Part shown: in pieces, positions 5,416 to 19,755 of the stretch | How positions within the stretch are numbered: the first letter of the stretch is position 1 | How the letters are laid out: each line of letters begins with the position of its first letter | Sequence record: KX130865 | Strand: one strand, 5' to 3' | Source of the DNA: Shigella phage SHSML-52-1 | DNA: 64,000 nucleotides | Notes under the pieces: model-generated | What the model saw: only the letters and a program-made list of their open reading frames with translations | Database searches by the model: none | Told to the model about the DNA's origin: nothing | Program-made: the position numbers and the translations under genes

Positions 5416-5455
5416 TATAATGCCAAGAACGGTAAACTAATTAAATGAGAGAAAT

Positions 5456-6091
5456 ATGAAAACTACACCAATCACTATCGCTATTGACGCAATCGTAAAA
5501 CAAGCTTCATCTCTTGCCACTATGGCTAAAGTAATTAGTCAAAACCCTGCCCGATATAATGCTATTCTTGAAACTCTTCGTCGCCCTGGACTGAGTAATT
5601 ATGAAAGCCGAGTAATTATTACAGGTGTTGGTAAGAATGCTAATATTGCAACTAAAGCTTCTGAGACATTTGCTTCACTAGGTATTCCTAGCATGTATTT
5701 GAACACTGGGCATTATTCTCATGGTGACGCAGGATTTATTGCACCTAATGATGTATTAGTTCACATCAGTCGTTCCGGTAAGACTGAAGAAATGATAGGT
5801 GTTGCTAAACATCTTCGTATGATTCGTCCTCAGGTTAAACAGATTCTGTTACATTGTAACCCTGACATTCCACAAGAATACGAAGCTCTTTTTGATTATA
5901 CGTTCTGTACCGGTATCGCGGTAGAAGTTGACGAGAACTCTTTAGCTCCGACCATGTCTACTACATTGTTGTTAGCGCTTATCGATACGTTCGCTATCAA
6001 CCTTTCATCTGAACGTGGATTTACCTCTAATGATTTCCTTAAGTTCCATCCAGGCGGTGCACTAGGTGCCATGTTACGAGGCGAACAATGA
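5456..6091 (+). CDS. SIS-domain sugar-phosphate isomerase (arabinose-5-phosphate isomerase / KpsF-GutQ-like)
   Basis: 211 aa; SIS signatures VGKNANIA, SRSGKTEE and C-terminal FHPGGALG typical of KdsD/GutQ-type isomerases. Confidence 0.7.
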   Translation: MKTTPITIAIDAIVKQASSLATMAKVISQNPARYNAILETLRRPGLSNYESRVIITGVGKNANIATKASETFASLGIPSMYLNTGHYSHGDAGFIAPNDVLVHISRSGKTEEMIGVAKHLRMIRPQVKQILLHCNPDIPQEYEALFDYTFCTGIAVEVDENSLAPTMSTTLLLALIDTFAINLSSERGFTSNDFLKFHPGGALGAMLRGEQ

Positions 6092-6231
6092 AAGCAATAA
6101 CAATAGGACTTTTACTATTGATGCTTGCCATGACTATCTACTGGAGCTTAACGGCTCCAGTAATGATTCCAACACTTGTAATTGGATGGATTATGATTGG
6201 TCTACAGGCAAAGTATGAATGCTTTAACTAG
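6088..6231 (+). CDS. small hydrophobic protein (47 aa), translationally coupled to the SIS gene
   Basis: ATGA overlap with the SIS stop; two predicted TM segments; not in ORF track (below 60 aa). Confidence 0.25.
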   Translation: MKAITIGLLLLMLAMTIYWSLTAPVMIPTLVIGWIMIGLQAKYECFN

Positions 6232-6244
6232 AATAGTGTACAAT
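6218..6244 (+). promoter_or_regulatory. putative middle promoter (MotA-box AATGCTTTA 6218-6226, -10 TACAAT 6239-6244)
   Basis: Box to -10 spacing 12 bp, about 30 nt upstream of the 6273 ATG. Confidence 0.4.
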
Positions 6245-6272
6245 ACACCTACTTACCAATGAGGACTTCAAC

Positions 6273-7961
6273 ATGAAAAAAGCTGTTATTCTTGGTGCTG
6301 GATTAGCAACTCGTTTATATCCAATTACTCACCATATTCCTAAGGTGCTTGTTAACTATAAACAAGACACTATTCTGAGCAATTTGTATACAATTTATTC
6401 TGACCTTGGCGCAGATGAAATTATTGTAGTAGTTCATTCAAAATTTGCTGAAACTGTTCGAGCTTATTGTGAGCAAGAAGGGTTCAATGTGACTATTCGT
6501 ACAGTTGATGAAGCGTATGGTTCTGCTTATGCTCTTGCTAAATTACACAAAGATTTAGACGGCCATAACGTAATTGTTAACTGGTGTGATATTATTCCTG
6601 ATTTTGGTTCATGGTCTTGGAATGTTAACGCAATCTATGTTAAGGGTGATGAATGTCGATATAATTTCGATGGTGAAAATATCACTAACGTAGGTTCAAC
6701 TGGTGGTAATGTTGTAGGAATTTATCAGTTCAAAGACTGGGAATTCTATATGGGTTCTACTGATGAGGAAATTCATGAATACTGCAAAGGACGTGATTTC
6801 GTAGAATTCCTTTACAGCGGCGCATTCAATAAATCAGAGCTTATGAATATCATCGACCTTGGTGATATGCCTAAACTTGAAAAAGCTCATGAAGTTCGTG
6901 AACTTAATCGTAGTTTTAATGCAGTTGAAATTGGTGAAGAAACGGTAACAAAGATTGCTTTAACAGAACAGGGCGTTGCACTTCAAAAAGATGAAGTCAA
7001 TTGGTATAAGAAAGTTAAATCAGATTCAGTTCCACGGATTGTAAGTTATCATCCTGGCGGCCACTTTATTATGGAACGCATTAAAGGTAAGCCGGCATTT
7101 GAATATATTAAATCCAAATCAAGTCTTGCTCGTCCACAAATTGTTGATGCAATTTTAGATGCACTGAAATTCAGCACAGACACTTATTTTGTAAGTCCTG
7201 AAACTGTTCGCCGTGATTTCACTAAAGAGTTCTATACGAAAGTTATTGATCGTTGTGAAAGCATTCAGCCATTGATTGATTCATTTGGTAAAATCACACA
7301 CGTGAACTACACTAAGATTGGACGTCTGAAGCCAATGTTGAAACAAGCTTTAGAACATCTTATTCGTTATCATAACCGTTCTCAGGGACAGTACTCTGTT
7401 ATTCACGGCGACCCAAACTTCAGTAATACTATGATTACTGATAACGGCGAAGTCAAGTTTATCGACCCTCGTGGATATTTTGGTGAAACCAAGATTTACG
7501 GGCCAAAATTGTACGATGAAGCTAAAGTGCTTTATGCTGTTTCAGGTTATGATGAATTCAATGCTAATCCGACCTGGGGACAGTTTACTATTGATGAAAC
7601 AACTTGTAATGTGACTATTAACATCAATCCATTAGTTTACAAATATGGAAAGATGAGTTCGTTTAACGAGTATCATCATTTGGCTGTAGCAATTATCTGG
7701 ATTGCATTAGGTGGTTATTTCAAGAATAATCCACTTAAAGCGGTAGCCGCCTATTATAAAGGTATGGAACTTCTGACTAAGCAATTACGTAACATGGGCC
7801 GTGTACTTCAAGATGGCTCTATTAGTTATGACGTAGCAGAACCTGTAACGGCTACTCTGATTACAAAAAATCCTGGTAAATGGGTGCTAACTGATAAAGA
7901 AACTGGTGTTTCCTATCGTCCAATCGGCGGCGATATCACTCATCAATGGGAACGAATCTAA
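6273..7961 (+). CDS. bifunctional sugar-1-phosphate nucleotidyltransferase (N-terminal, RmlA-like) / APH-type kinase (C-terminal)
   Basis: 562 aa; N-terminus ILGAGLATRLYPIT resembles RmlA GGSGTRLYPLT; C-terminal HGDPNFSNTMI…FIDPRGYFG resembles the HGDxxxxN / D-x-x-G motifs of APH/choline-kinase-fold kinases. Confidence 0.7.
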   Translation: MKKAVILGAGLATRLYPITHHIPKVLVNYKQDTILSNLYTIYSDLGADEIIVVVHSKFAETVRAYCEQEGFNVTIRTVDEAYGSAYALAKLHKDLDGHNVIVNWCDIIPDFGSWSWNVNAIYVKGDECRYNFDGENITNVGSTGGNVVGIYQFKDWEFYMGSTDEEIHEYCKGRDFVEFLYSGAFNKSELMNIIDLGDMPKLEKAHEVRELNRSFNAVEIGEETVTKIALTEQGVALQKDEVNWYKKVKSDSVPRIVSYHPGGHFIMERIKGKPAFEYIKSKSSLARPQIVDAILDALKFSTDTYFVSPETVRRDFTKEFYTKVIDRCESIQPLIDSFGKITHVNYTKIGRLKPMLKQALEHLIRYHNRSQGQYSVIHGDPNFSNTMITDNGEVKFIDPRGYFGETKIYGPKLYDEAKVLYAVSGYDEFNANPTWGQFTIDETTCNVTININPLVYKYGKMSSFNEYHHLAVAIIWIALGGYFKNNPLKAVAAYYKGMELLTKQLRNMGRVLQDGSISYDVAEPVTATLITKNPGKWVLTDKETGVSYRPIGGDITHQWERI

Positions 7962-8347
7962 TGCACCGTGTAGAAAACATGCTTAATCTTTGTTTTGATG
8001 TCGATGATTGTATAACAGAGTGGAATAACAATCGTGATTACGTGAACTTCAAACCAGATGTCGAAATGGTGTCTGCCATTAATGCCCTGTACGATGCAGG
8101 GCATACCATAACGCTTTACACTGCCCGTGGTATGAAGTCGGTAGGTCCTGGTCGTATAGCAATTGACATTCTCCCAAGTCTGATTCAGAACTTGGAAAAC
8201 ATTGGTTTGAAGTACCATAATTTGCTAACACATAAACCAGTATATGATTGGATTATCGACGACAAAGCTATGCGTCCTGACGAATTCAAAGCTCTTATGA
8301 ATAAAGGCGAATTCGAAACATTTAAATCATATAAACCAAATCTATAA
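7961..8347 (+). CDS. HAD-superfamily phosphatase-like protein
   Basis: N-terminal FDVDDCIT (DxDx[T/V] HAD motif I); track start 7946 but ATG 7961 abuts the upstream stop. Confidence 0.55.
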   Translation: MHRVENMLNLCFDVDDCITEWNNNRDYVNFKPDVEMVSAINALYDAGHTITLYTARGMKSVGPGRIAIDILPSLIQNLENIGLKYHNLLTHKPVYDWIIDDKAMRPDEFKALMNKGEFETFKSYKPNL

Positions 8348-8404
8348 TAATTTAAGTAAGACCTGCAAAAACCATCGCATCAATTAACGCGAGATGCAAA
8401 AAAA

Positions 8405-9565
8405 ATGAATACTTTTAAAATCGGAACGAATTTTGATTTAGCTCTTCTTGATAAAATCGTAGAGCTCAATAAAACCTATCCTAATAGCTTGATAAACGAA
8501 GTATATGGCTCTACAAGAGAAATGGCTTTTGTAGCAGCCAGACCTGATTTTAGGCTTCCTGACGTTGACAAAAAGATGTTAGAAGACTACGTTAAACGTT
8601 GTAACGAATTAGGTATTTGCTTTAACTATACACTCAACACGATAAATCCTGGTTCAAAAAGAGAACTAGTTGAGTGGAAGAAGAAAGCTATTCAGGATTA
8701 TGTTCAGTATCTTTGGTCAATAGGCGTATGGCGTATTACTATCGCTAACCCTGTTGTTATGGAAATTGTTCGTGAAGTCAATAAAGATATTGAGATTGAA
8801 GTTTCAACAATTCTACATGTTGATGCTGTAACTCAAATCAAATACTTACATGACCAATATAACATCAAAAAGGTCTGTTGCGGAATTCATAAGAACCGTT
8901 CAGTTTCTTTCCTGAAGCGTGCAGCAGAGTTTTGCAATAAGAACAATATAATATTTGAAGTTCTTGTAAATGAGTTCTGTTCTAATGCTGGTAAAGGGTA
9001 TACAACACATTGTAGTTATCGTGACTCTTGCTATATTTTCCATAGTACTGATGTTACCGCTGATGATGCTAAATCCTTAAATGGATATCCTATGCAGCAC
9101 TGTATTAAAGCTCGTGATACAGACCCATTTAACTGGTTGAGAACTCGTTTTGTTCGTCCTCAAGATTTGAAACTTTATAATGATATTGGTATCACTCAAT
9201 TCAAAGTTTCAGGACGTACAGGTAGCACAGACTACATTTTGAAAGTTCTTGAAGCATACGCTTCTGAAAAGTTTGAAGGTAATTTGTTAGAACTGTGGAA
9301 GCCTTTAGAGACTATTTTCACTCTTGAAAATGAGACTGAGTTTTCACATACAGTAAATATTGAAACCTCTTTGTTAGATGGCTTTTTAGAAAAAAGGTGG
9401 TTCAGACATCCAGATTTTGATTGTGCTAATGAAATCTGTGGGTCAACGTGTACATATTGTGAAAGGTATTATAAACGTCAATTATCTAAAAACGGGTTAG
9501 CAGAAAACTCCATATCTATTATTGATATAACTAACTCTGATGACGCTTTGAGGTACCCGGAATGA
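8405..9565 (+). CDS. hypothetical Cys-rich protein in the modification block
   Basis: 386 aa; Cys clusters (CSNAGKGYTTHCSYRDSC; CANEICGSTCTYC) suggest metal or Fe-S binding; U32-like fold considered but signature not matched. Confidence 0.6.
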   Translation: MNTFKIGTNFDLALLDKIVELNKTYPNSLINEVYGSTREMAFVAARPDFRLPDVDKKMLEDYVKRCNELGICFNYTLNTINPGSKRELVEWKKKAIQDYVQYLWSIGVWRITIANPVVMEIVREVNKDIEIEVSTILHVDAVTQIKYLHDQYNIKKVCCGIHKNRSVSFLKRAAEFCNKNNIIFEVLVNEFCSNAGKGYTTHCSYRDSCYIFHSTDVTADDAKSLNGYPMQHCIKARDTDPFNWLRTRFVRPQDLKLYNDIGITQFKVSGRTGSTDYILKVLEAYASEKFEGNLLELWKPLETIFTLENETEFSHTVNIETSLLDGFLEKRWFRHPDFDCANEICGSTCTYCERYYKRQLSKNGLAENSISIIDITNSDDALRYPE

Positions 9566-9801
9566 TTTCTAGAAAAAGTTTTAATTATAAACTTAACGAA
9601 GAGATTTTGACTATGAAACTGAACACTAACGAACAAATTCTTAAAAAGGCCCTTATGGGCCTGTTTGAAACCAAAGCGGCTAAAGTGATTAAAGAACCTG
9701 TTCAATTGGAATACTACACTGATGCATTCCTTCATAGTGTTCTTGGAAGTATAGATTCTGAAGCTTTACGTTATATCAACATTGTCAAGAAATTCAAATA
9801 A
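9562..9801 (+). CDS. hypothetical protein (79 aa)
   Basis: Track ORF overlapping the upstream stop; contains a terminator-like hairpin at 9648-9661, so coding status is uncertain. Confidence 0.3.
   Translation: MISRKSFNYKLNEEILTMKLNTNEQILKKALMGLFETKAAKVIKEPVQLEYYTDAFLHSVLGSIDSEALRYINIVKKFK
9648..9661 (+). terminator. hairpin GGCCC-TTAT-GGGCC followed by TGTTTG
   Basis: Perfect 5-bp GC stem inside ORF 9562-9801; possible attenuator after the modification-gene block. Confidence 0.3.
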
Positions 9802-9824
9802 GCTTTACGAATTGAGTATATAAT
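9800..9824 (+). promoter_or_regulatory. putative middle promoter for gene 42 (AAGCTTTA 9800-9807, -10 TATAAT 9819-9824)
   Basis: MotA-box-like element plus consensus -10 about 20 nt upstream of the 9844 ATG. Confidence 0.4.
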
Positions 9825-9843
9825 AAATTGTATTGAGGTAAAC

Positions 9844-10560
9844 ATGGGAAAACATAACACAATGAAATATATCAAAGCCGCAGATTTTCAAGCCGCATTT
9901 AAAGCAGTCAATCGTGAAATTTTAGAAAACCCTGAATTCGTAACTGATTCTCGTATTGGACGTTGTAATGAAATTGGGTCTATGACAGTAGTTGTTGACA
10001 CTCCATCATCATTCAAAATGACCGACCCACGTATTAACCGCATCTCTTATGAATACGCCGAAGACTTCTGGAAGTTTATGATTTCTGGTGGTACCAACGC
10101 AGAAGAAGCGTTTAAGGCATATCCTAATGTCGCTAAATTTATTTCTAAACCAAAATCAGATGTTTTGCCGGCGAACTTCAACACTTTCTATGGTCCTCGC
10201 ATTGCGGCCCAATTACCAACTCTTCTAAAAGAACTTAAAGAAAAACCTAACTCTCGAAGAGTTGTGTTCCAAATTCTAGAAAGTTCTGATCAGGCTTTGC
10301 TTGATTCGGACGAAACACTTGAATATCCATGTACTGACTCAGTGACTTATTATATTCGTGATGGTAAGCTTTATACCCACTGCCATATGCGTTCTCAGAA
10401 CTGTGCTGTTGTTATGCAGTTGGATTTTTATCTCCAAGGAAAATTACTTCATTATATCGCTAACGAATGCGGTGTAGAAGTTGGTGATTATACTCATACC
10501 ATGGTAAGTGCCCATGTGTTTGAACGTGATTTTGATTATGTTAAAGGATTCCTTGACTAA
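9844..10560 (+). CDS. 42: dCMP hydroxymethylase gp42 (thymidylate-synthase fold)
   Basis: 238 aa; PNSRRVVF and CTDSVTYYIRDGKLYTHCHMRSQN match the TS/dCMP-HMase active-site region (catalytic Cys). Confidence 0.85.
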   Translation: MGKHNTMKYIKAADFQAAFKAVNREILENPEFVTDSRIGRCNEIGSMTVVVDTPSSFKMTDPRINRISYEYAEDFWKFMISGGTNAEEAFKAYPNVAKFISKPKSDVLPANFNTFYGPRIAAQLPTLLKELKEKPNSRRVVFQILESSDQALLDSDETLEYPCTDSVTYYIRDGKLYTHCHMRSQNCAVVMQLDFYLQGKLLHYIANECGVEVGDYTHTMVSAHVFERDFDYVKGFLD

Positions 10561-11459
10561 TGGCTATTTTCCGCGTACCAATCTTGAGTATGCGGTCTTA
10601 TGAAACTGGACAGTATGCTATCCTTAAGGATGGCAACTTCCAACTTCATTTGCACCGTGCTAATCCAGGTGATGTGATTACATATCCACGTAATGCATCT
10701 GATATTAAAGAATGTGAACGTCTTTTCCCGGAATTTAAGTTTGTTCCATTATGGTATAAAGATAACGCGTATAACACTCGTAAATATTTCTGGTCTGAAA
10801 ATGAATTTGTGGTTGATTCATTAATTGCTTATTATGATTGTGATTTTCTAATAACAGATATCACTGGATATGACGGCGCTTTTGATGTAGAATTCAATTT
10901 CAATATCACGGCAGACCCTAATAAACCACGTTTTTATATTGACGAATTCTTAAAAACCGATATGTTGTCAGTTAATCGTTCACTTCAAACTACTGTGTTG
11001 AATGAACGTCAAAAGGAAGTGCTGGTTAAAGCCGGTGCAGATGGTAATAAGATTATCGTAACGCAGAAAGTTATACGTCCTTCCATCATGCAGCGTCTTG
11101 TAGGTGATTTGACTCCTATTCATGTAGATGGTATTTTTCATCCATTTCGAATTAGTGATCCGTGTTATCATTTTGAACAAGTGGTTGAATGTGCAATTCA
11201 ATTAGGTCAACCACTTTATATAACCGATCCAAATAATAGCTTCGACAGAAATAAGTATCCTGAAGAAGCGCTGATTCGAATTTTTAAACCAACTAAAACT
11301 GAGTACTATCAAATTCTTAAAGGACGCCCGAAGATTCAATATTTCGAAAATCCTGAAGAAGTATTCCATCCAGGTCTTGGTGAGTTCATCTACTTTAATG
11401 CTTTAATTTCTTCGCCGTATAATATACCTAAATACGAAGATGTCGTAATCGAGGAATAA
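10560..11459 (+). CDS. hypothetical protein at the T4 beta-glucosyltransferase position; candidate hmC-DNA glycosyltransferase
   Basis: 299 aa, TAATG-coupled to gene 42; no family recognised by eye; function inferred from synteny only. Confidence 0.45.
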   Translation: MAIFRVPILSMRSYETGQYAILKDGNFQLHLHRANPGDVITYPRNASDIKECERLFPEFKFVPLWYKDNAYNTRKYFWSENEFVVDSLIAYYDCDFLITDITGYDGAFDVEFNFNITADPNKPRFYIDEFLKTDMLSVNRSLQTTVLNERQKEVLVKAGADGNKIIVTQKVIRPSIMQRLVGDLTPIHVDGIFHPFRISDPCYHFEQVVECAIQLGQPLYITDPNNSFDRNKYPEEALIRIFKPTKTEYYQILKGRPKIQYFENPEEVFHPGLGEFIYFNALISSPYNIPKYEDVVIEE

Positions 11460-11460
11460 A

Positions 11461-12009
11461 ATGGCTAAAATTATTTTAGTAGATGGCCCGGATAATGCCG
11501 GTAAAACAACTTTCATTAATGACATAATGGAAATTAGTGAAAGATATGTAAAGATTGATTTCCCTAAACGAACAGTTGATGGACGTTTCGATGTTAAGTC
11601 TCGAAATGAAGTTGGTTGTTTCGAAACGATGTTGAATTATTTAGACCCTACTAAGATTTATCTGTTAGACCGTGGATATATTAGTAACTGGGTTTATGGA
11701 CGTATTCGACAAGATGCGGACTCTGTTCTTGATGTTTATGAGCAGGATTATGTTCGTCTTTGTCAAAACCATGATGTGTTCACAATTATTTTAACACGTA
11801 ACGAAATGACTGAAAGTTTTGAAGACGACCTTATTACTTTGTCTTCATTCGGTTTTAATACAGTCATTTCACATTTTGAAGAGTTTGCAATTCATAACAA
11901 AATCCAAACATATCAATTACTTAATCATGATGGTGCTAACAAAGTTATAGGATTTAATGCAAGCGAACGTAATAATTTGATTACAGAAATCATTAAATGG
12001 GCTCGTTAA
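11461..12009 (+). CDS. P-loop kinase (thymidylate/deoxynucleoside-kinase-like)
   Basis: 182 aa; Walker A VDGPDNAGKTT and LLDRGY motif resembling the TMK/dNK DRx motif. Confidence 0.55.
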   Translation: MAKIILVDGPDNAGKTTFINDIMEISERYVKIDFPKRTVDGRFDVKSRNEVGCFETMLNYLDPTKIYLLDRGYISNWVYGRIRQDADSVLDVYEQDYVRLCQNHDVFTIILTRNEMTESFEDDLITLSSFGFNTVISHFEEFAIHNKIQTYQLLNHDGANKVIGFNASERNNLITEIIKWAR

Positions 12010-12107
12010 GAGCCATTTAAAGTTTTAAATGCTGTATAACTCTTAGTATATAATCATCTTATCTTTTAAACATGAGTAAAATATAATGATGCCTATGGAA
12101 AAATACA

Positions 12108-13280
12108 ATGTCTGATTTAAAATCTCGTCTGATTAAAGCTTCTACTTCTAAAATGACTGCAGACTTGACTAAGTCTAAGCTGTTTAATAATCGCGATGAA
12201 GTCCCTACTCGTATTCCGATGTTGAATATTGCATTAGGTGGTGCACTGAATGCCGGGTTGCAATCAGGCTTAACTATTTTTGCTGCTCCTTCTAAACACT
12301 TTAAAACGTTGTTTGGGCTGACCATGGTTGCAGCATATATGAAGAAATATAAAGATGCAATCTGTTTGTTTTATGACTCAGAATTCGGTGCTTCAGAATC
12401 TTATTTTCGTTCAATGGGTGTTGATTTAGACCGTGTAGTTCATACTCCGATTCAATCTGTCGAACAACTTAAAGTTGATATGACTAATCAGCTTGACGCG
12501 ATTGAACGCGGTGATAAAGTTATTATCTTTATCGATTCAATCGGTAATACTGCATCTAAGAAAGAAACCGAAGATGCGTTGAACGAGAAAGTTGTAGGTG
12601 ATATGTCTCGTGCTAAGGCACTTAAATCTCTGTTCCGCATTGTGACTCCTTATCTGACTATTAAAGATATTCCATGTGTTGCAATCAACCATACAGCAAT
12701 GGAAATCGGCGGACTATATCCTAAAGAGATTATGGGTGGTGGTACAGGTATTCTTTATTCTGCCAACACGGTATTTTTTATCTCTAAACGTCAGGTTAAA
12801 GAAGGTACAGAATTGACCGGTTATGACTTCACGTTGAAAGCGGAAAAATCTCGTACAGTTAAAGAGAAATCTACTTTCCCGATCACGGTTAATTTTGATG
12901 GCGGTATTGACCCATTCAGTGGCTTGTTAGAAATGGCAACTGAAATTGGTTTTGTAGTTAAGCCTAAAGCCGGGTGGTATGCTCGTGAATTCCTTGACGA
13001 AGAAACAGGCGAAATGATTCGTGAAGAGAAATCATGGCGTGCTAAAGCTACCGATTGTGTAGAATTCTGGGGACCTTTGTTTAAACATAAGCCTTTCCGA
13101 GATGCAATTGAAACTAAATATAAACTAGGTGCTATCTCTTCTATTAAAGAAGTTGATGACGCTGTTAACGACCTTATTAATTGCAAAGCAACAACTAAAG
13201 TTCCGGTTAAAGCTTCTGATGCTCCGTCTGCAGCAGATATAGAAAACGACCTTGACGAAATGGAAGATTTCGATGAATAA
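12108..13280 (+). CDS. uvsX: UvsX recombinase (RecA-like)
   Basis: 390 aa; N-terminus MSDLKSRLIKASTSK and overall sequence match T4 UvsX; acidic C-terminal tail. Confidence 0.95.
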   Translation: MSDLKSRLIKASTSKMTADLTKSKLFNNRDEVPTRIPMLNIALGGALNAGLQSGLTIFAAPSKHFKTLFGLTMVAAYMKKYKDAICLFYDSEFGASESYFRSMGVDLDRVVHTPIQSVEQLKVDMTNQLDAIERGDKVIIFIDSIGNTASKKETEDALNEKVVGDMSRAKALKSLFRIVTPYLTIKDIPCVAINHTAMEIGGLYPKEIMGGGTGILYSANTVFFISKRQVKEGTELTGYDFTLKAEKSRTVKEKSTFPITVNFDGGIDPFSGLLEMATEIGFVVKPKAGWYAREFLDEETGEMIREEKSWRAKATDCVEFWGPLFKHKPFRDAIETKYKLGAISSIKEVDDAVNDLINCKATTKVPVKASDAPSAADIENDLDEMEDFDE

Positions 13281-13614
13281 TCTCGATGATTTAAATCTAG
13301 AAATCGTTGATGAATCCCCTTCTTCGGAAGGGGAAGACATTCGCAAAGAACGAGTGTTTAATGAATCTCTTAAAATTATCCGTTCAGCAATGGAAAATGT
13401 CATTCAAGAGATTCTGATTACACTTGAAGACGGTTCTCATCATATAGTCTATATTACAAAACTAGACTGGGTTGATGGTAAAATCGTAATGGACTTTGCA
13501 GTTCTTGACCAGGACAGAAAAGCAGAACTTGCACCACATGTTGAAAAATGTGTTACAATGCAAATACAACAAGCTTTTAATGAACGGACCAAGAAAAAAT
13601 TTAAATTCTTTTAA
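13273..13614 (+). CDS. 40: small protein at the gene 40 position
   Basis: ATG 13273 overlaps the uvsX stop; track start 13252 is a TTG; assignment by synteny (uvsX-40-41). Confidence 0.5.
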   Translation: MNNLDDLNLEIVDESPSSEGEDIRKERVFNESLKIIRSAMENVIQEILITLEDGSHHIVYITKLDWVDGKIVMDFAVLDQDRKAELAPHVEKCVTMQIQQAFNERTKKKFKFF

Positions 13615-13623
13615 GGAGTTATC

Positions 13624-15066
13624 GTGGTAGAAATTATTTTGTCTCATCTAGTATATGACCAGGCTTATTTTTCTAAGGTCTGGCCTTATATGGATTCTGA
13701 GTATTTTGAGCGTGGACCGGCAAAAAACGTCTTTAAAATTATAAAGAGCCACGTTAACGAATATAATGCAATGCCATCTATCAATGCATTAAAGGTGGCT
13801 TTAGATAACAGTTCTTTAACTGAAGCCGAATATAAAGGAACTTCAGACCTAATTGAAAAATTGGCTGATACTCCTGAAGACCACGAATGGTTGGTTAAAG
13901 AAACTGAGAAATATGTCCAGCAAAAAGCGATGTATAATGCTACGTCCAAAATCATTGAGATTCAGTCTAATGCTGAACTACCTCCAGAACAACGTAACAA
14001 GAAAATGCCTGACGTAGGAGCTATTCCTGATATTATGCGTCAAGCACTTTCAATTTCGTTTGATAGTTATGTTGGGCATGACTGGATGGAAGACTATGAA
14101 GCACGCTGGCTTTCTTATCTGAACAAAGCACGTAAGGTCCCGTTCAAATTAAACATTTTGAATAAAATCACTAAAGGTGGTGCTGAAACCGGTACACTGA
14201 ATGTTTTAATGGCCGGTGTTAACGTCGGCAAATCTTTAGGCCTTTGTTCACTTGCTGCAGATTATCTTCAAACAGGACATAATGTTCTTTATATTTCCAT
14301 GGAAATGGCTGAAGAAGTTTGTGCTAAGCGTATAGATGCAAACATGCTTGACGTATCACTCGATGATATCGATGATGGTAACGTATCTTATGCTGAATAT
14401 AAAGCCAAGATGGAAAAATGGCGTTCAAAAACAACATTAGGACGTTTAGTAGTTAAACAGTATCCTACCGGTGGAGCTAATGCTAATACATTTCGTGCAT
14501 TGCTTAATGAATTGAAACTCAAGAAGAACTTTGTGCCATCTGTAATCATGGTTGATTACTTAGGTATTTGTGGGTCTTGTCGTATCAGAGTTTACACTGA
14601 AAATAGTTACACATTAGTTAAAGCTATCGCAGAAGAACTTCGTGCATTAGCAGTAGAATCTGAAACAGTTCTATGGACTGCAGCTCAAGTAGGACGTGCA
14701 GCATGGGATGCTTCAGACATGAACATGAGTGATATCGCAGAATCAGCAGGTTTACCAGCAACGGCAGATTTCATGTTGGCTGTAATTGAAACTGAAGAAC
14801 TTGCACAAGCTGAACAACAACTTATCAAACAAATCAAATCACGATACGGTGATAAGAATAAGTGGAATAAATTCCTGATGGGTGTACGTAAAGGCAATCA
14901 GAAATGGGTTGAGATTGAGCAAGAAGGCATGAACACACCTAACACAGTAAATGAAAACGCAGGTGCTCAGATGCGTCAGGCAGAGGTGAATCGTACGGAA
15001 CGCGTAGGTAAAGCCAAAGCAACACGTGCTGACCTAGATAGCTTAGCCAACGAGTTAAAATTTTAA
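13624..15066 (+). CDS. 41: replicative DNA helicase gp41 (DnaB family)
   Basis: 480 aa, GTG start after AAGGAG; near-identical to recalled T4 gp41 (MVEIILSHL…, GVNVGKSLGL Walker A). Confidence 0.95.
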   Translation: MVEIILSHLVYDQAYFSKVWPYMDSEYFERGPAKNVFKIIKSHVNEYNAMPSINALKVALDNSSLTEAEYKGTSDLIEKLADTPEDHEWLVKETEKYVQQKAMYNATSKIIEIQSNAELPPEQRNKKMPDVGAIPDIMRQALSISFDSYVGHDWMEDYEARWLSYLNKARKVPFKLNILNKITKGGAETGTLNVLMAGVNVGKSLGLCSLAADYLQTGHNVLYISMEMAEEVCAKRIDANMLDVSLDDIDDGNVSYAEYKAKMEKWRSKTTLGRLVVKQYPTGGANANTFRALLNELKLKKNFVPSVIMVDYLGICGSCRIRVYTENSYTLVKAIAEELRALAVESETVLWTAAQVGRAAWDASDMNMSDIAESAGLPATADFMLAVIETEELAQAEQQLIKQIKSRYGDKNKWNKFLMGVRKGNQKWVEIEQEGMNTPNTVNENAGAQMRQAEVNRTERVGKAKATRADLDSLANELKF

Positions 15067-15070
15067 TAAA

Positions 15071-15090
15071 AAGGAGACTTCGGTCTCCTT
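15071..15090 (+). terminator. rho-independent terminator after gene 41 (AAGGAGAC-UUCG-GUCUCCUU)
   Basis: Perfect 8-bp stem with UUCG loop directly after the gene 41 stop. Confidence 0.65.
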
Positions 15091-15095
15091 TCGGG

Positions 15096-15125
15096 GTTTA
15101 CATCTTCCTCTAGGCATGATATGAT
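15096..15125 (+). promoter_or_regulatory. early promoter (-35 GTTTAC 15096-15101, -10 TATGAT near 15120)
   Basis: T4 early-promoter-like -35 immediately after the terminator, upstream of ORF 15155. Confidence 0.4.
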
Positions 15126-15154
15126 GAACTTACACCAACCAAGAGGAAAACATT

Positions 15155-15529
15155 ATGAATATGTCTCAAGCAATTTTTACTGCAATCACCGAAAACACAA
15201 CTGTTGAAGTAGTTTCTCCGCTGGCAACCTACGTTATTCTTGCTCCTAAAACTATTGTATCTCGTATGGAAAACATGGGCAAACGTATCGTACAAATAGT
15301 TGGAGCTGGAAATCAAAAACTTGATTATCTACGAACCATCAAAGCTTATGAACATTTCCAACTCGAAAAAGGTTCTCCTATCCAGGTAGAACTCGTAAAT
15401 GGTGATATCGTTCGAGCAATGTTCCATCATTTCTATGCGTTGAATGACCCATCTAAAGCGGTTCGTTTAATTGCATACGACGCAAACCAAAACGAAATCA
15501 ATGCAGATATATCTAAATTACGTTTTTAA
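15155..15529 (+). CDS. hypothetical early protein (124 aa)
   Basis: Track ORF with RBS AAGAGGAAAA; no family recognised. Confidence 0.55.
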   Translation: MNMSQAIFTAITENTTVEVVSPLATYVILAPKTIVSRMENMGKRIVQIVGAGNQKLDYLRTIKAYEHFQLEKGSPIQVELVNGDIVRAMFHHFYALNDPSKAVRLIAYDANQNEINADISKLRF

Positions 15530-15578
15530 GTTTACTTCTCCAGTAGTTGTGTTATTATAGACCTATCAACTACTGGAG
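15530..15578 (+). promoter_or_regulatory. PeSL-type cassette: early promoter with 12-bp inverted repeat (CTCCAGTAGTTG / CAACTACTGGAG)
   Basis: -35 GTTTAC 15530-15535, -10 TATTAT 15553-15558 inside the loop; downstream arm contains the RBS GGAG of ORF 15585. Confidence 0.55.
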
Positions 15579-15584
15579 AACAAA

Positions 15585-15902
15585 ATGAAAACCATCGATT
15601 GTAAAGCAGAATTTAAGATTTTTTATCACGGTTCAAGTAGTTCAGCTAACATCGAAAACATGCTTTGTCCTCCTGAAGAAACAGGAGTTCTGTCTGAAAC
15701 TGGACGTAAGAAAAACTTGAATCGTGTATTCTTTACTGAAGATATCGGTTTAGCAAAGATTTATGCAGGACGAGCAGCACGCTCTTATGGAGGTGAACCA
15801 CGTCTCTATCGAGTAATTTCTCCGGTAGACGTAGTTCAAATGAATGATACTAAAGGTGCTACAGTTTATCACGCTGAATGGGCCTTCTGTGAGGAAATCT
15901 AA
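15585..15902 (+). CDS. hypothetical early protein (105 aa)
   Basis: Track ORF directly downstream of a PeSL promoter; no family recognised. Confidence 0.55.
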   Translation: MKTIDCKAEFKIFYHGSSSSANIENMLCPPEETGVLSETGRKKNLNRVFFTEDIGLAKIYAGRAARSYGGEPRLYRVISPVDVVQMNDTKGATVYHAEWAFCEEI

Positions 15903-15909
15903 AATGGAA
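15891..15909 (+). repeat. 19-bp junction repeat GAGGAAATCTAAAATGGAA (copy 1)
   Basis: Identical 19-mer spans stop and next start at two consecutive gene junctions (second copy 16096-16114). Confidence 0.6.
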
Positions 15910-16107
15910 AATATGGCTAAAGTGTTGTTTATTGGTTGGTTTGAAAATGGGAATATGTTTACCAAAGAAGTTACCATGGACGTGTCTGATAAAGACCAAA
16001 TCCTATGGGCCACTTCTCAATTTGCTGAAGTAAATAAAGCTTTAGTTGAAGCATTTGTTGATGATAAGAAAGTTTTTGAATCCGATTGGCGTAAAGAGGA
16101 AATCTAA
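15904..16107 (+). CDS. hypothetical early protein (67 aa)
   Basis: ATG 15904 one nt after the upstream stop; track ORF 15844-16107 in the same frame. Confidence 0.45.
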   Translation: MENMAKVLFIGWFENGNMFTKEVTMDVSDKDQILWATSQFAEVNKALVEAFVDDKKVFESDWRKEEI

Positions 16108-16114
16108 AATGGAA
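16096..16114 (+). repeat. 19-bp junction repeat GAGGAAATCTAAAATGGAA (copy 2)
   Basis: Second identical copy at the next gene junction. Confidence 0.6.
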
Positions 16115-16249
16115 GAAGTAGAATGTGTAGTGTGTGGTTGTAGCGTCTATGAAGACGAAGCTGTTTTCGATGCATATGATAATGCGACTTGTTTAGACTG
16201 CGACCGTGAATCTGAAGAACATGCTTACGAGCATGAAGACGAGGAATAA
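16109..16249 (+). CDS. small acidic zinc-ribbon-like protein (46 aa)
   Basis: CVVCGC…CLDC cysteine pairs plus acidic tail; ATG 16109 within track ORF 16046-16249. Confidence 0.45.
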   Translation: MEEVECVVCGCSVYEDEAVFDAYDNATCLDCDRESEEHAYEHEDEE

Positions 16250-16261
16250 AATAAAATAATT

Positions 16262-16303
16262 GTTTACAGGGGTCTATGGTAGTGATACTATAGACCTATC
16301 AAC
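16262..16303 (+). promoter_or_regulatory. PeSL-type early promoter (GTTTAC 16262-16267; inverted repeat GGTCTAT / ATAGACC)
   Basis: Contains the recurrent TATAGACCTATCAAC core found at seven plus-strand junctions. Confidence 0.5.
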
Positions 16304-16319
16304 TATAGAGGAAATTGAA

Positions 16320-16688
16320 ATGAAAAAATTAATCGCTTTAGCAATGGTATTTGGATTAACCGGATGTGGTGCTCATGGCTTTATCCCTAATAACGTTGGC
16401 CAACTGATTTACAATCCGAATGTTAAACAGTATGACCAACCTAAAGTTGAAGTGGAAGACCCGGTTACTGTAGGTAATCGAATGATTCAAGCTGATGCTC
16501 ATGCTCAACGTTATCGTGACTCTGATACTGTAGCTATGTCAAAAGAACAACGCGTTAAAGAACATTGTCTACAGGCTACTGAAATCGCATTTATTCGCTA
16601 TGTTGAAACAACTGGTAAAGAGCCTACCCAGAAACAAATCGCGAATAACTACGTCCAGTGTATTGAACGTTTAAACAAATTTAATTAA
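16320..16688 (+). CDS. putative lipoprotein
   Basis: Signal peptide with lipobox (MKKLIALAMVFGLTGC); ATG 16320 with RBS AGAGGAAATTGAA; track ORF 16260 begins at an upstream TTG. Confidence 0.55.
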   Translation: MKKLIALAMVFGLTGCGAHGFIPNNVGQLIYNPNVKQYDQPKVEVEDPVTVGNRMIQADAHAQRYRDSDTVAMSKEQRVKEHCLQATEIAFIRYVETTGKEPTQKQIANNYVQCIERLNKFN

Positions 16689-16749
16689 TTGGTTTACACC
16701 AAAGTTAAACCAAGATACTATAAACATAACAAATCAAGAGGAAATTAAC

Positions 16750-16998
16750 ATGGAATTATTCGTGGCTAGTTCAGTAGCAGTTTTAATCGCAGGTATTGGT
16801 TCAATCATCATTTACATGTTGCCTTGGGTAATCGCACTTATTCGTGGCACAAAAAGCACAACAGCAATCTTCTTTGTATCTTTACTCTTTAACTGGACGA
16901 TGGTTGGTTGGATTGGAACTTTAATTTGGTCTATCGTTGCCGAAAAGAAATCGGCTCAGCAGCCTCAACAAGTAATTATTATTCGCGAAAAAGAATAA
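16750..16998 (+). CDS. imm: superinfection immunity (Imm)-like membrane protein
   Basis: 82 aa, two TM segments, motif LPWVIALIRG…WTMVGWIGTLIW resembling the Imm_superinfect family. Confidence 0.5.
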   Translation: MELFVASSVAVLIAGIGSIIIYMLPWVIALIRGTKSTTAIFFVSLLFNWTMVGWIGTLIWSIVAEKKSAQQPQQVIIIREKE

Positions 16999-17002
16999 AC
17001 TT

Positions 17003-17041
17003 GTTTACATTATAGATGGACTATAGTATAGTAGTCCTATC
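17003..17041 (+). promoter_or_regulatory. PeSL-type early promoter (GTTTAC 17003-17008; inverted repeat GGACTA / TAGTCC)
   Basis: Variant core ATAGTAGTCCTATCAAA shared with cassettes at 37980, 38492 and 58821. Confidence 0.5.
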
Positions 17042-17061
17042 AAATCAACTAAGGAGTTAAA

Positions 17062-17355
17062 ATGAAAAAGTTATCATTGGCAGCAATCCTACTTGCAGTA
17101 TCATGTGCACCAGCTCCAGTTACAGCAGGTTATGATAAAGACCTCTGTGAGTGGTCAATGACTGCAAATCAAGAAGATGTTGAACAACAAATCTTCTCTG
17201 ATATCATGAACATCACTAAACGAGACCGTCCTAATATGGTTAATAAAGTTGTTGAACAACTTAAGTCTGGCGGTATCATGCAGTACAACTATGTTTTGTA
17301 TTGTGACCCTAATTTCGATAACAAAGATATCGTAACCGAAATCACAGGTGAATAA
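17062..17355 (+). CDS. sp: spackle-like periplasmic protein
   Basis: 97 aa with signal peptide; GYDKDLCEWSMTA…GGIMQYNYVLYCD resembles T4 Sp as recalled. Confidence 0.55.
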   Translation: MKKLSLAAILLAVSCAPAPVTAGYDKDLCEWSMTANQEDVEQQIFSDIMNITKRDRPNMVNKVVEQLKSGGIMQYNYVLYCDPNFDNKDIVTEITGE

Positions 17356-17356
17356 T

Positions 17357-18007
17357 ATGATTTATTATATGCACAAAAACGCGCCATTTAAATATGGTAA
17401 ATTTCCTAATGCACAATGTTATAATATAACGCCGAATGAAAATAATAACGGATATCATATTGGTGTAATTTTTGTAATTGTTAAAGATAACGAAATCGTC
17501 GCCTGGGCAGATTTTAAAGGTACAACATATGATGTTAATCCAGTGCCTTTCACATATTATAATTTAATGGATTTGGCATACGACTATAATTGGTTTACTC
17601 ATGATACTCTAGCACATGTTGAAGGCGTAGGATTTGACATCTCTTATTCTAGCTATTCATTATGTCCTATGAGCCGAGCTCACGGTAAAGATGTATCATA
17701 TCTTTCAATTCGGAAACGTGTAAACTTCAAACGTAGTACAGAGTATGTTGGTGGACTCTTTGTTAAAGATAATAAAATAACCCGTATTAGTTATCCTTTA
17801 AGTGTAGGTCAAAAAGATGTTGATGTTGATTTAGACTTAACTGAAAATAACATTAATCATATTGCTTCTGTATATTTTGATATCGATGAAAAAATTGTAG
17901 TGTGTGGATACGAATTACCACCTGAAGAAAAGGATGAAACAATTGAAGTCGAATTAGAAATTTCTGTTGATGACCAAATATTTAATGCATTTATGAATCG
18001 AGGTTAA
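17357..18007 (+). CDS. hypothetical protein (216 aa)
   Basis: Track ORF (GTG 17348); ATG 17357 follows the sp stop; no family recognised. Confidence 0.55.
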   Translation: MIYYMHKNAPFKYGKFPNAQCYNITPNENNNGYHIGVIFVIVKDNEIVAWADFKGTTYDVNPVPFTYYNLMDLAYDYNWFTHDTLAHVEGVGFDISYSSYSLCPMSRAHGKDVSYLSIRKRVNFKRSTEYVGGLFVKDNKITRISYPLSVGQKDVDVDLDLTENNINHIASVYFDIDEKIVVCGYELPPEEKDETIEVELEISVDDQIFNAFMNRG

Positions 18008-18008
18008 A

Positions 18009-18206
18009 ATGACTACTGCAATTTGCACTGGTTCTAAAATTAGTGTTTTTACAAGTTTTGAAGATTATGAAGTTGTTTCAAAACACCAATGCCATATTAG
18101 CGTAAAAGCTAATGACGGTGTAATTTGGAATATTCCACAGTATGAAGGCACTACATACGAAGTCACAGATATAAATGGTGACAAAGCAATCTTTGTAATT
18201 GATTAA
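18009..18206 (+). CDS. hypothetical protein (65 aa)
   Basis: Track ORF, start 1 nt after the upstream stop. Confidence 0.45.
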   Translation: MTTAICTGSKISVFTSFEDYEVVSKHQCHISVKANDGVIWNIPQYEGTTYEVTDINGDKAIFVID

Positions 18207-18225
18207 ATATACTCAGGAGGTACCT

Positions 18226-18693
18226 ATGGGTATTATTAACACTGCAATAGATTCTGTTTACGCATATAAGTTTATTCGACTAATGCAAAAACCTTTTACC
18301 GAATGGAAAGCGTATGAAGCCAAAATCATCGACGAACGTGGAAGTGTTCTTAAACGTCCTTCTACTCCCGAAGAGAAAGCGGCTTATACACCTTTTCATG
18401 CTTCAGTTCGTTCAATGAAGCGAATGATGAGTACTGTTCCAGGTCTTAATGGAATGGCCTCAATGATGTCTGCCTGGAGTGCCGTAGCATCCCGCTATAA
18501 CATTACAGAAGAACAACAGAAAGAAATATTTAAAGAACTCCCTTTATTTGAGGATATGGTTGCTGGTGATTCAGGCGGTAGTCCTCAAGCTATTGCATCA
18601 GGAACTACTACAGGTGCAATTGTAAATAAAGGTCCAGAACAAATTCCTTCCAAGAAAAGAAAGCGAATTAAAGTAAATATTAATAAGTTGTGA
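18226..18693 (+). CDS. hypothetical protein with basic C-terminal tail (KKRKRIKVNINKL)
   Basis: ATG 18226 preceded by AGGAGG; track ORF starts 18199. Confidence 0.5.
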   Translation: MGIINTAIDSVYAYKFIRLMQKPFTEWKAYEAKIIDERGSVLKRPSTPEEKAAYTPFHASVRSMKRMMSTVPGLNGMASMMSAWSAVASRYNITEEQQKEIFKELPLFEDMVAGDSGGSPQAIASGTTTGAIVNKGPEQIPSKKRKRIKVNINKL

Positions 18694-18699
18694 TAAGAT

Positions 18700-18719
18700 G
18701 GCCTTATTAATTTAAGGCC
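18700..18719 (+). promoter_or_regulatory. hairpin GGCCTTA-TTAATT-TAAGGCC upstream of gene 61
   Basis: 7-bp perfect inverted repeat in the 39-nt spacer before the gene 61 ATG; no U-run. Confidence 0.35.
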
Positions 18720-18732
18720 TCTGGAGAATACT

Positions 18733-19755
18733 ATGGCTGAATGGATAGATAATGAATTTGCTTATCGTGCGTTTTCTCACCTCCCTCGTTTTAGACAAAT
18801 CAATAATTCAAGCACATTTAAATTAACATTTCGTTGTCCAGTTTGTGGCGACTCCCAGACAGATGCAATGAAAGCTCGCGGATGGTATTATGGCGGTACT
18901 CCAGGTAATGTGCATTGCTATAACTGTCAATACCACAATACAATTTCTGGATACTTAAAAGAGTATGATGAAGAGCTTTATCGCGAATATCTAATGGAAG
19001 TTCGTAAAGAAAAAGCTAGAATGGAACCAAAGATTGAAAAGGTTCCTGAAGCTAAGCCGGAGCCAGAGAAAAAGACTATAAATTCTTTGCCATCTTGTTC
19101 TCGTCTGGACAAGTTGCCTGAAGAGCATCCTATTGTGAAATATGTTAAGTCTCGGTGTATTCCTAAAGAATCGTGGAACAGATTATGGTTCACATTAGAA
19201 TGGCCCAAATTGGTCAACAAGATTCAACCTGGTACGTATAAGAAAGAGATTCCTGAACCGCGTTTAGTGATTCCTATTTTTAATAAAGATGGGAAGGCCG
19301 AGTCATTCCAAGGACGTGCACTTCGTAAAGATGCTCCTCAGAAATATATCACTATTAAAGCGTTTGAGTCTGCAACAAAAATTTATGGTGTTGAACGTGT
19401 TAAGGAAGGAGACGTCTGGGTAATGGAAGGCCCTATTGATAGTTTATTCATACCCAATGCAATCGCTATTACAGGCGGCTCGATAGATTTAGATGTGGTA
19501 CCATTTAAAGAACGTCGGGTATGGGTAATGGATAATGAACCTAGGCATCCGGATACTATAGCTCGTATGAAGCGATTAGTTGATGCAGGCGAACGTGTCA
19601 TGTTCTGGGACCGAGCTCCATGGAGATCAAAGGATGTGAATGATATGGTAATGAAAGAAAATGCAACACCACAAGAAATTTTAGAATATATGAAACAGAA
19701 TATTTCAAGTGGGTTGCATGCTAAAATGAGATTATCTCGTTATTCGAAGATTTAA
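18733..19755 (+). CDS. 61: DNA primase gp61
   Basis: 340 aa; zinc ribbon CPVCGDS…CYNC and overall match to recalled T4 gp61. Confidence 0.93.
   Translation: MAEWIDNEFAYRAFSHLPRFRQINNSSTFKLTFRCPVCGDSQTDAMKARGWYYGGTPGNVHCYNCQYHNTISGYLKEYDEELYREYLMEVRKEKARMEPKIEKVPEAKPEPEKKTINSLPSCSRLDKLPEEHPIVKYVKSRCIPKESWNRLWFTLEWPKLVNKIQPGTYKKEIPEPRLVIPIFNKDGKAESFQGRALRKDAPQKYITIKAFESATKIYGVERVKEGDVWVMEGPIDSLFIPNAIAITGGSIDLDVVPFKERRVWVMDNEPRHPDTIARMKRLVDAGERVMFWDRAPWRSKDVNDMVMKENATPQEILEYMKQNISSGLHAKMRLSRYSKI

Follow-up and report, generated by a model that had tools for sequence, protein, structure and literature searches.

We analysed a stretch of 64,000 nucleotides (nt) from Shigella phage SHSML-52-1 (KX130865; the window) with respect to the block of small genes located between gene 41, encoding the replicative helicase, and gene 61, encoding the primase, in which the superinfection exclusion genes imm and sp (spackle) are found together with imm.1. 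Our data suggest that this block is the standard Mosigvirus form of the variable early 41-61 island of all T-even-like phages and that the position of imm.1-imm within it is derived, likely by cassette recombination, a reading to which we assign a probability of roughly 0.85. Compared to T4, sp, dmd, adfA and 61.1 would occupy ancestral positions, and the only real rearrangement would be the presence of imm.1-imm between dmd/o4 and sp rather than just 3' of gene 43. The simplest model is that the Mosigvirus lineage acquired two promoter-plus-gene cassettes, one with imm.1 and one with imm, by insertion between dmd and sp. We infer that they most likely arrived by recombination between early-promoter/stem-loop cassettes of about 60 nt, the route being either an intragenomic move or capture from a T4-like phage. 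The main gain over the first-pass annotation, in which the exclusion genes had been described as relocated as a cluster, is to correct this view: the interval is the native place of sp, and only imm.1-imm changed slot.

Homologues of T4 Imm, Sp and Imm.1 in the 41-61 interval

Sequence comparison identifies all three proteins, Imm, Sp and Imm.1, as genuine homologues of their T4 namesakes, with scores above the respective Pfam thresholds. Imm reaches 56.9 bits in PF14373 (Imm_superinfect; cut-off 27.9) and is 64% identical to T4 Imm (82/83 amino acids), Sp reaches 145 bits in PF25676 (cut-off 27) with 66% identity to T4 Sp, and Imm.1 reaches 36.8 bits in DUF5481 (cut-off 27) with 32% identity to T4 Imm.1. 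Hydropathy analysis reveals two hydrophobic segments in Imm, i.e. residues 1-34 and 40-59, and the lipobox L-T-G-C of Imm.1 is located at residues 13-16. Sp matches the sequence of PDB entry 6x6o across residues 1-97 (E=1.4e-39) and keeps a signal peptide of 22 residues as well as Cys29 and Cys81 (MKKLSLAAILLAVSCAPAPVTA followed by GYDKDLC29...LYC81). T4 Spackle likewise has an export signal of 22 residues and, in its mature helical bundle, the pair Cys29-Cys81; it inhibits the gp5 lysozyme stoichiometrically and works with Imm in superinfection exclusion (PMC7677548). Pfam matches, identity to the T4 proteins, lipobox and signal peptide thus confirm the lipoprotein, the Imm-like and the spackle-like protein that had been proposed from the letters of the DNA; the products of the open reading frames (ORFs) at 16750 and 17062, whose lack of relationship to Imm and Sp had been named as a refutation, turned out to be related to them. 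The window contains a single copy each of imm and sp.

Judging from their T4 and RB69 homologues, the characterised members of the block would shield the infected cell on behalf of the phage. Imm, acting at the inner membrane, and Sp, inhibiting the gp5 lysozyme of the incoming phage in the periplasm, are predicted to exclude superinfecting T-even phages, while Dmd would counter the toxins RnlA/LsoA and AdfA would counter DarT.

Gene order in the window compared to T4

The 41-61 interval of the window comprises 3,666 nt (15067-18732) with ten ORFs, all on the plus strand, in agreement with the block of about 3.5 kb of small genes reported in the first-pass annotation. The T4 record reads, in the direction of transcription, 41, dmd, 61.4, sp, 61.2, 61.1, 61, with five genes within 1,648 nt, and at a separate locus 43, imm.1, imm, 42. 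The annotation had correctly placed T4 imm near gene 43. It was mistaken in letting gene 61 directly follow gene 41, as dmd, 61.4, sp, 61.2 and 61.1 intervene, and in placing sp downstream of gene 61, as sp lies upstream of it in the direction of transcription. Window and T4 share the genes flanking the interval, the order dmd-sp-61.2-61.1 and the early promoters preceding the dmd operon and sp. They differ in size (1.65 kb with five genes in T4, 3.67 kb with ten genes in the window), in that T4 does not have o1, o2, o9, imm.1 and imm in the interval and carries tifA where the window has o4, and in the greater length of 61.1 in the window. At the T4 locus between genes 43 and 42, imm.1 and imm show the same order as in the window, the lipoprotein gene preceding that of the two-helix membrane protein. 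In T4, however, the pair resides in this other slot, is separated by a gap of 11 nt without a promoter and shares one promoter, and imm overlaps 42.1, whereas imm.1 and imm have separate promoters in the window.

The gene sp is located in the 41-61 interval also in RB69, in Gaprivervirus RZ and in Dhakavirus LHE83, in the latter two directly after dmd, and in the window it is still followed by 61.2/adfA as in T4. The presence of sp in this interval in T4, RZ, LHE83 and RB69 implies that no cluster was moved and that imm.1-imm landed beside a resident sp. A relocation of both imm and sp from their T4 positions into the 41-61 interval would account for the two genes being adjacent in the window and apart in T4, and an imm-sp adjacency recurs at an unrelated place in Morganella/Providencia phages. 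We nevertheless regard it as very improbable, as T4 sp (gene 61.3) already lies within the interval between 61.4 and 61.2 and as its neighbours, 61.2/adfA in the window and dmd in Dhaka- and Gaprivervirus, show that only imm.1-imm shifted. What stands of the relocation claim is that imm, together with imm.1, is found elsewhere than in T4.

The probable former position of imm next to gene 43

In T4, RZ, LHE83 and Gelderlandvirus UTK0003, imm is located just 3' of gene 43, and in Muldoonvirus a few genes further on. The T4 gene is followed by 42.1, a two-helix ORF of 49 amino acids (NC_000866, 26226-26375, minus strand) whose start overlaps the imm stop codon (ATGA); the ORF is unannotated in the RefSeq record, and some records name it gp42.1. 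Homologues of 42.1 directly follow imm in RZ and LHE83, and the RB69 homologue is annotated as "similar to T4 42-imm intercistronic region". In the window 42.1 is still present 3' of gene 43, implying that the old neighbour of imm stayed put and marks the former imm site. The slot between 43 and 42.1 thus has alternative contents, imm.1-imm in T4 and the isomerase gene in the window. At the receiving site, Dhaka- and Gaprivervirus show the arrangement o2-dmd-promoter-sp with nothing between dmd and sp. Taken together, imm following gene 43 in other genera, 42.1 being left behind and the empty dmd-sp gap in Dhaka- and Gaprivervirus argue for the Mosigvirus position being derived.

The opposite polarity, i.e. 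an ancestral RB69-type layout from which the T4 lineage moved imm.1-imm behind gene 43, is unlikely. It would agree with the window Imm being nearest to T4 Imm and with the imm.1-imm pair, not imm alone, occurring only in Tequatrovirus and Mosigvirus among the genomes sampled. It is opposed by the location of imm behind gene 43 in five genera, among them the distant Muldoonvirus, by the order imm then 42.1 in T4, Gapriver- and Dhakavirus with the window retaining 42.1 there without imm, and by Dhaka- and Gaprivervirus sharing o2-dmd-sp with the window while having no gene inserted between dmd and sp.

Some observations weigh against a derived, cassette-borne position of imm.1-imm. The direction of the move is based on one sampled genome per genus, and the evidence for a cassette-mediated insertion consists of the cassette plan common to the gaps and a single breakpoint close by. 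Six genes of the block, i.e. o1, o2, o4, imm.1, o9 and 61.1, have no known role. The window Imm shows 64% identity to T4 Imm vs 50-51% to the Dhaka- and Gaprivervirus Imm proteins, while Sp behaves in the opposite way with 66% identity to T4 vs 71-74% to Dhaka- and Gaprivervirus; the Imm values suggest that the cassette may derive from a T4-like donor and not from the phage's own slot next to gene 43. This leads to a more specific scenario in which imm.1-imm were captured at promoter cassettes from a co-infecting T4-like phage and the resident copy next to gene 43 was lost separately when arabinose-modification genes entered. Besides the similarity of Imm to T4, which is reversed for gp43, uvsX, o2 and Sp, the mosaic neighbourhood (gp40, gp41 and gp61 nearer to T4, gp43 and uvsX nearer to Dhakavirus) and the restriction of imm.1 with imm to T4-type and RB69-type phages among the genomes sampled speak for such a capture, which we consider a tentative but serious possibility. 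The identity of Imm is, however, no higher than that of further accessory proteins common to the window and T4 (Sp 66%, AdfA 66%, Dmd 63%), giving no sign of recent transfer, and a quicker divergence of the Dhaka- and Gaprivervirus imm genes would give the same pattern.

Early promoters and stem-loops in the gaps between the genes

We searched for T4-type early promoters using the strict pattern GTTTAC-N17/18-TAnnnT. The block contains five sites on the plus strand (15096, 15530, 16262, 16692 and 17003), compared to about 0.05 expected, and zero on the minus strand. All five are intergenic and precede o1, o2, imm.1, imm and sp, respectively. Across the whole window the plus strand carries 19 strict sites vs 0.84 expected, while a generic sigma-70 scan is uninformative alone (22 sites vs 15.4 expected). 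The genes dmd, o4, adfA, o9 and 61.1 are operon members without a promoter of their own, separated from their neighbours by gaps of 1-20 nt or overlapping them shortly. Early transcription would thus start at five T4-type sigma-70 promoters and yield five units, i.e. o1, o2-dmd-o4, imm.1, imm and sp-adfA-o9-61.1. The earlier statement that each gene lies behind a cassette promoter holds for imm.1, imm and sp, and also for o1 and o2, but fails for the other five of the ten genes. Window, T4, RZ and LHE83 share a common plan of the gaps, i.e. stop codon, GTTTAC, about 18 nt, TAnnAT, roughly CTATCAACTAC, GAGGA and ATG; this common plan makes the term cassette promoter apt for imm.1, imm and sp. 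The imm promoter region shows a similarity of 54 nt to the imm.1 leader.

These gaps resemble the PeSL elements, which flank variable genes and combine an early promoter with a stem-loop that either lies between its -35 and -10 boxes or covers the -10 box (PMC2839356, PMC4122927). A strong sigma-70-type promoter with such a stem-loop, followed by a ribosome-binding site and ATG, is found at 15530, 16262 and 17003. As described for PeSL elements, the genes on either side of the cassettes are variable ones of a hyperplastic region. The breakpoint of a swap of dmd/o4 relative to RB69 lies within the cassette at 16262. The gaps at 16692 (imm), having no significant stem-loop, and at 15096, where the stem-loop is upstream of the -35 box, deviate from the PeSL architecture. 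As to PeSL elements acting as recombination sites, this dmd/o4 swap breakpoint in the imm.1 promoter is the single one seen here. Alignment with RB69 shows that 15884-16300 of the window is replaced, with a different dmd allele and with o4 instead of 61.4/tifA, the right breakpoint being within the imm.1 promoter. The allele of the window occurs at >=99% identity in eight records. The base composition of the block shows no foreign signature compared to the flanks, its GC content being 0.31-0.39 vs 0.35-0.41.

In the stem-loop at 15530-15585, sequence from between the -35 and -10 boxes is paired with the o2 ribosome-binding site. The ribosome-binding site would be sequestered in read-through transcripts from upstream and free in transcripts starting at the o2 promoter itself. 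The only Rfam match, over this palindromic promoter, was rejected as a chance hit to a microRNA family.

Adjacency of imm and sp in other phages

Using a fused Imm+Sp query, we found imm and sp adjacent in 156 of the 981 phage records carrying either gene, at 80-99% identity; in the Mosigvirus records listed with this adjacency, one place per record contains both. Of 809 records carrying Imm.1 or Imm, 657 have the two side by side, including T4-type and RB69-type phages, which suggests that imm.1-imm behave and travel as a unit.

A second pairing is present in distant T4-like phages of Morganella and Providencia (MP1, Rgz1, PSTRCR_121/127, PSTCR6), in which the gene for an Imm protein (PF14373) is directly followed by that for an Sp protein (PF25676), at 4983-5416 in MP1 (L004; genes overlapping) and at 4001-4467 in PSTCR6 (L010). 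Compared to the window, this pair is found in the tk-rI region rather than between 41 and 61, shows an ATGA overlap and is not accompanied by imm.1. The separate location implies that this pairing is independent and that imm and sp came together more than once. A far-reaching interpretation, which we consider rather unlikely, is that the position of imm beside sp is selected, having arisen at least twice (in the Mosigvirus 41-61 interval and in the Morganella/Providencia tk-rI region), that Imm.1 is a third, hitherto unrecognised exclusion factor in RB69-type phages, and that the three separately promoted genes are inherited together as a module protecting the outer-membrane/periplasm side, the periplasm and the inner membrane. 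Imm.1 would in this three-gene interpretation be a lipoprotein on a tether, carrying a small helical domain linked by a disulfide. The structural model of Imm.1 predicts a disordered tether and three helices with two invariant cysteines. No fold match was obtained for the model, a word-indexed protein search returned, even with a profile, 3-4 Imm.1 relatives only, and a literature search on imm.1 yielded no relevant paper.

Relationship to RB69 and previous descriptions of the region

The window represents an RB69-like phage. Over 7 kb around the block it shows 98.5% nucleotide identity to Escherichia phage LF82-41, 98.2% to Shigella phage Shf125875 and 96-97% to phage RB69, and 145 phage records span >=80% of this query. 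Both Shf125875 and RB69 are assigned to Mosigvirus (Tevenvirinae) in the taxonomy of their records. The RB69 interval (NC_004928, RB69p031-p041) has the same order, i.e. ORF041c, ORF040c, dmd, the slot occupied by o4 in the window, imm.1, imm, sp, 61.2, ORF033c and 61.1, with 96-97% DNA identity and most proteins being 96-100% identical. It differs in the dmd allele (54% amino acid identity), in 61.4/tifA vs o4 of the window, in Arg164 vs His164 in AdfA and in 61.1 being split into two ORFs vs one.

The layout was already known: it is the norm for RB69-like phages, being present in about 150 database genomes and annotated in the RB69 record. The RB69 record, which dates from 2003, and the Shf125875 record give this order of genes, with imm.1, imm and sp among those annotated. 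We found no paper in the literature discussing the position of imm in RB69, and prior knowledge is shown by the database annotation. Srikant et al. called the T4 region an "anti-TA island" and drew its synteny with RB69 (PMC9391042, Fig. 3A legend). As the interval has been discussed both as a hyperplastic region and as an anti-toxin island, the block carries little weight as a discovery. The wider neighbourhood of the block (2704-19755) is of mosaic ancestry: gp43 and UvsX are 84-90% identical to Dhakavirus vs 62-68% to T4, and gp40, gp41 and gp61 are nearer to T4 (74-86%) vs Dhakavirus (46-68%).

The other genes of the block

The coordinates of all features are summarised in Table 1. PADLOC returned zero matches for all ten proteins of the block, and NCBIfam only sub-threshold noise for the block proteins.

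Table 1. Genes, promoters and stem-loops in and around the 41-61 interval (coordinates of the window).
Feature	Position	Strand	Evidence and remarks
SIS-domain gene (arabinose-5-P isomerase-like)	5456..6091	+	PF01380 and annotation of relatives; occupies the imm.1-imm slot of T4
42.1 homologue	6088..6231	+	47-amino-acid two-helix membrane ORF; ATGA overlap with stop of SIS-domain gene
Gene 41, replicative helicase (left border)	13624..15066	+	86% identical to T4 gp41; 480 amino acids
Stem-loop after gene 41	15070..15091	+	9-bp stem, UUCG loop; terminator-like portion of a promoter/stem-loop cassette; z = -2.6 (RNA fold, 15060-15154)
o1 early promoter	15096..15125	+	GTTTAC-N18-TATGAT; stem-loop immediately 5' of -35 box, not over -10
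o1	15155..15529	+	124 amino acids; RB69ORF041c; phrog_10668; 100% identical to RB69
o2 early promoter	15530..15580	+	14-bp stem-loop across -10 box, z = -4.9; pairs with ribosome-binding site (GGAG)
o2	15585..15902	+	105 amino acids; RB69ORF040c; predicted minimal ADP-ribosyltransferase fold
dmd, antitoxin against RnlA/LsoA	15904..16107	+	PF17587, E=2.8e-24, 85.6 bits (cut-off 27)
o4	16109..16249	+	46 amino acids, acidic; CxxC...CxxC zinc-ribbon; phrog_13952; slot of 61.4/tifA in RB69/T4
imm.1 early promoter	16262..16297	+	12-bp stem-loop over -10 box, z = -4.0
imm.1, lipoprotein	16320..16688	+	DUF5481, E=5.6e-9; lipobox LTGC; Cys83 and Cys114 invariant
imm early promoter	16692..16721	+	Stem-loop not significant (z = -0.6)
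imm, inner-membrane superinfection immunity protein	16750..16998	+	PF14373, E=1.8e-15
sp early promoter	17003..17040	+	Stem-loop over -10 box, z = -2.3
sp (spackle), predicted periplasmic inhibitor of gp5 tail lysozyme	17062..17355	+	PF25676, E=1e-42
61.2 = adfA (anti-DarT factor A)	17357..18007	+	PF23813, E=2e-119, 397 bits
o9	18009..18206	+	65 amino acids; RB69ORF033c; phrog_3249; 100% identical to RB69
61.1, long form	18226..18693	+	C-terminal 48 amino acids 67% identical to T4 gp61.1
Gene 61, primase (right border)	18733..19755	+	74% identical to T4 gp61

Published work assigns the inhibition of RnlA to Dmd, of ToxN to 61.4 (TifA) and of DarT to 61.2 (AdfA) (PMC9391042). The window AdfA has His at RB69 position 164, where RB69 itself has Arg164; His164 is the DarT1-neutralising allele and Arg164 the inactive allele of RB69 (PMC9391042, PMC11257639). 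The Dmd of the window is 63% identical to that of T4 and 54% to that of RB69, being nearer to the Dhaka-/Gapriver- and T4 alleles than to that of RB69. No TifA homologue is present downstream of dmd, and o4 shows no similarity to T4 61.4. Candidates for counter-defence are Imm.1, the predicted ADP-ribosyltransferase-fold protein encoded 5' of dmd, and the zinc-ribbon ORF that takes the place of tifA.

Among close RB69-type phages, the slot following dmd is occupied by tifA/61.4 (RB69) or by the zinc-ribbon ORF of 46 amino acids (window, Shf125875, LF82-4), or contains nothing (JK45). An exact direct repeat of 19 nt, GAGGAAATCTAAAATGGAA, brackets dmd in the window (15891-15909 and 16096-16114), its copies being the o2/dmd and dmd/o4 stop-start junctions; this repeat could support deletion or amplification of dmd.

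The o2 protein is highly conserved, comprises about 105 amino acids and is confidently modelled with an ADP-ribosyltransferase fold as in Tpt1, Arr, AcrF11 and diphtheria toxin, making it a candidate counter-defence enzyme on the basis of the model. Its gene has no counterpart in T4; in Mosig-, Dhaka- and Gapriverviruses it directly precedes dmd. In Shf125875 (L002, 3586-4035), the o2 homologue is frameshifted by an extra base close to its 3' end, and the annotated ORF therefore extends over dmd, encoding 149 instead of 105 amino acids.

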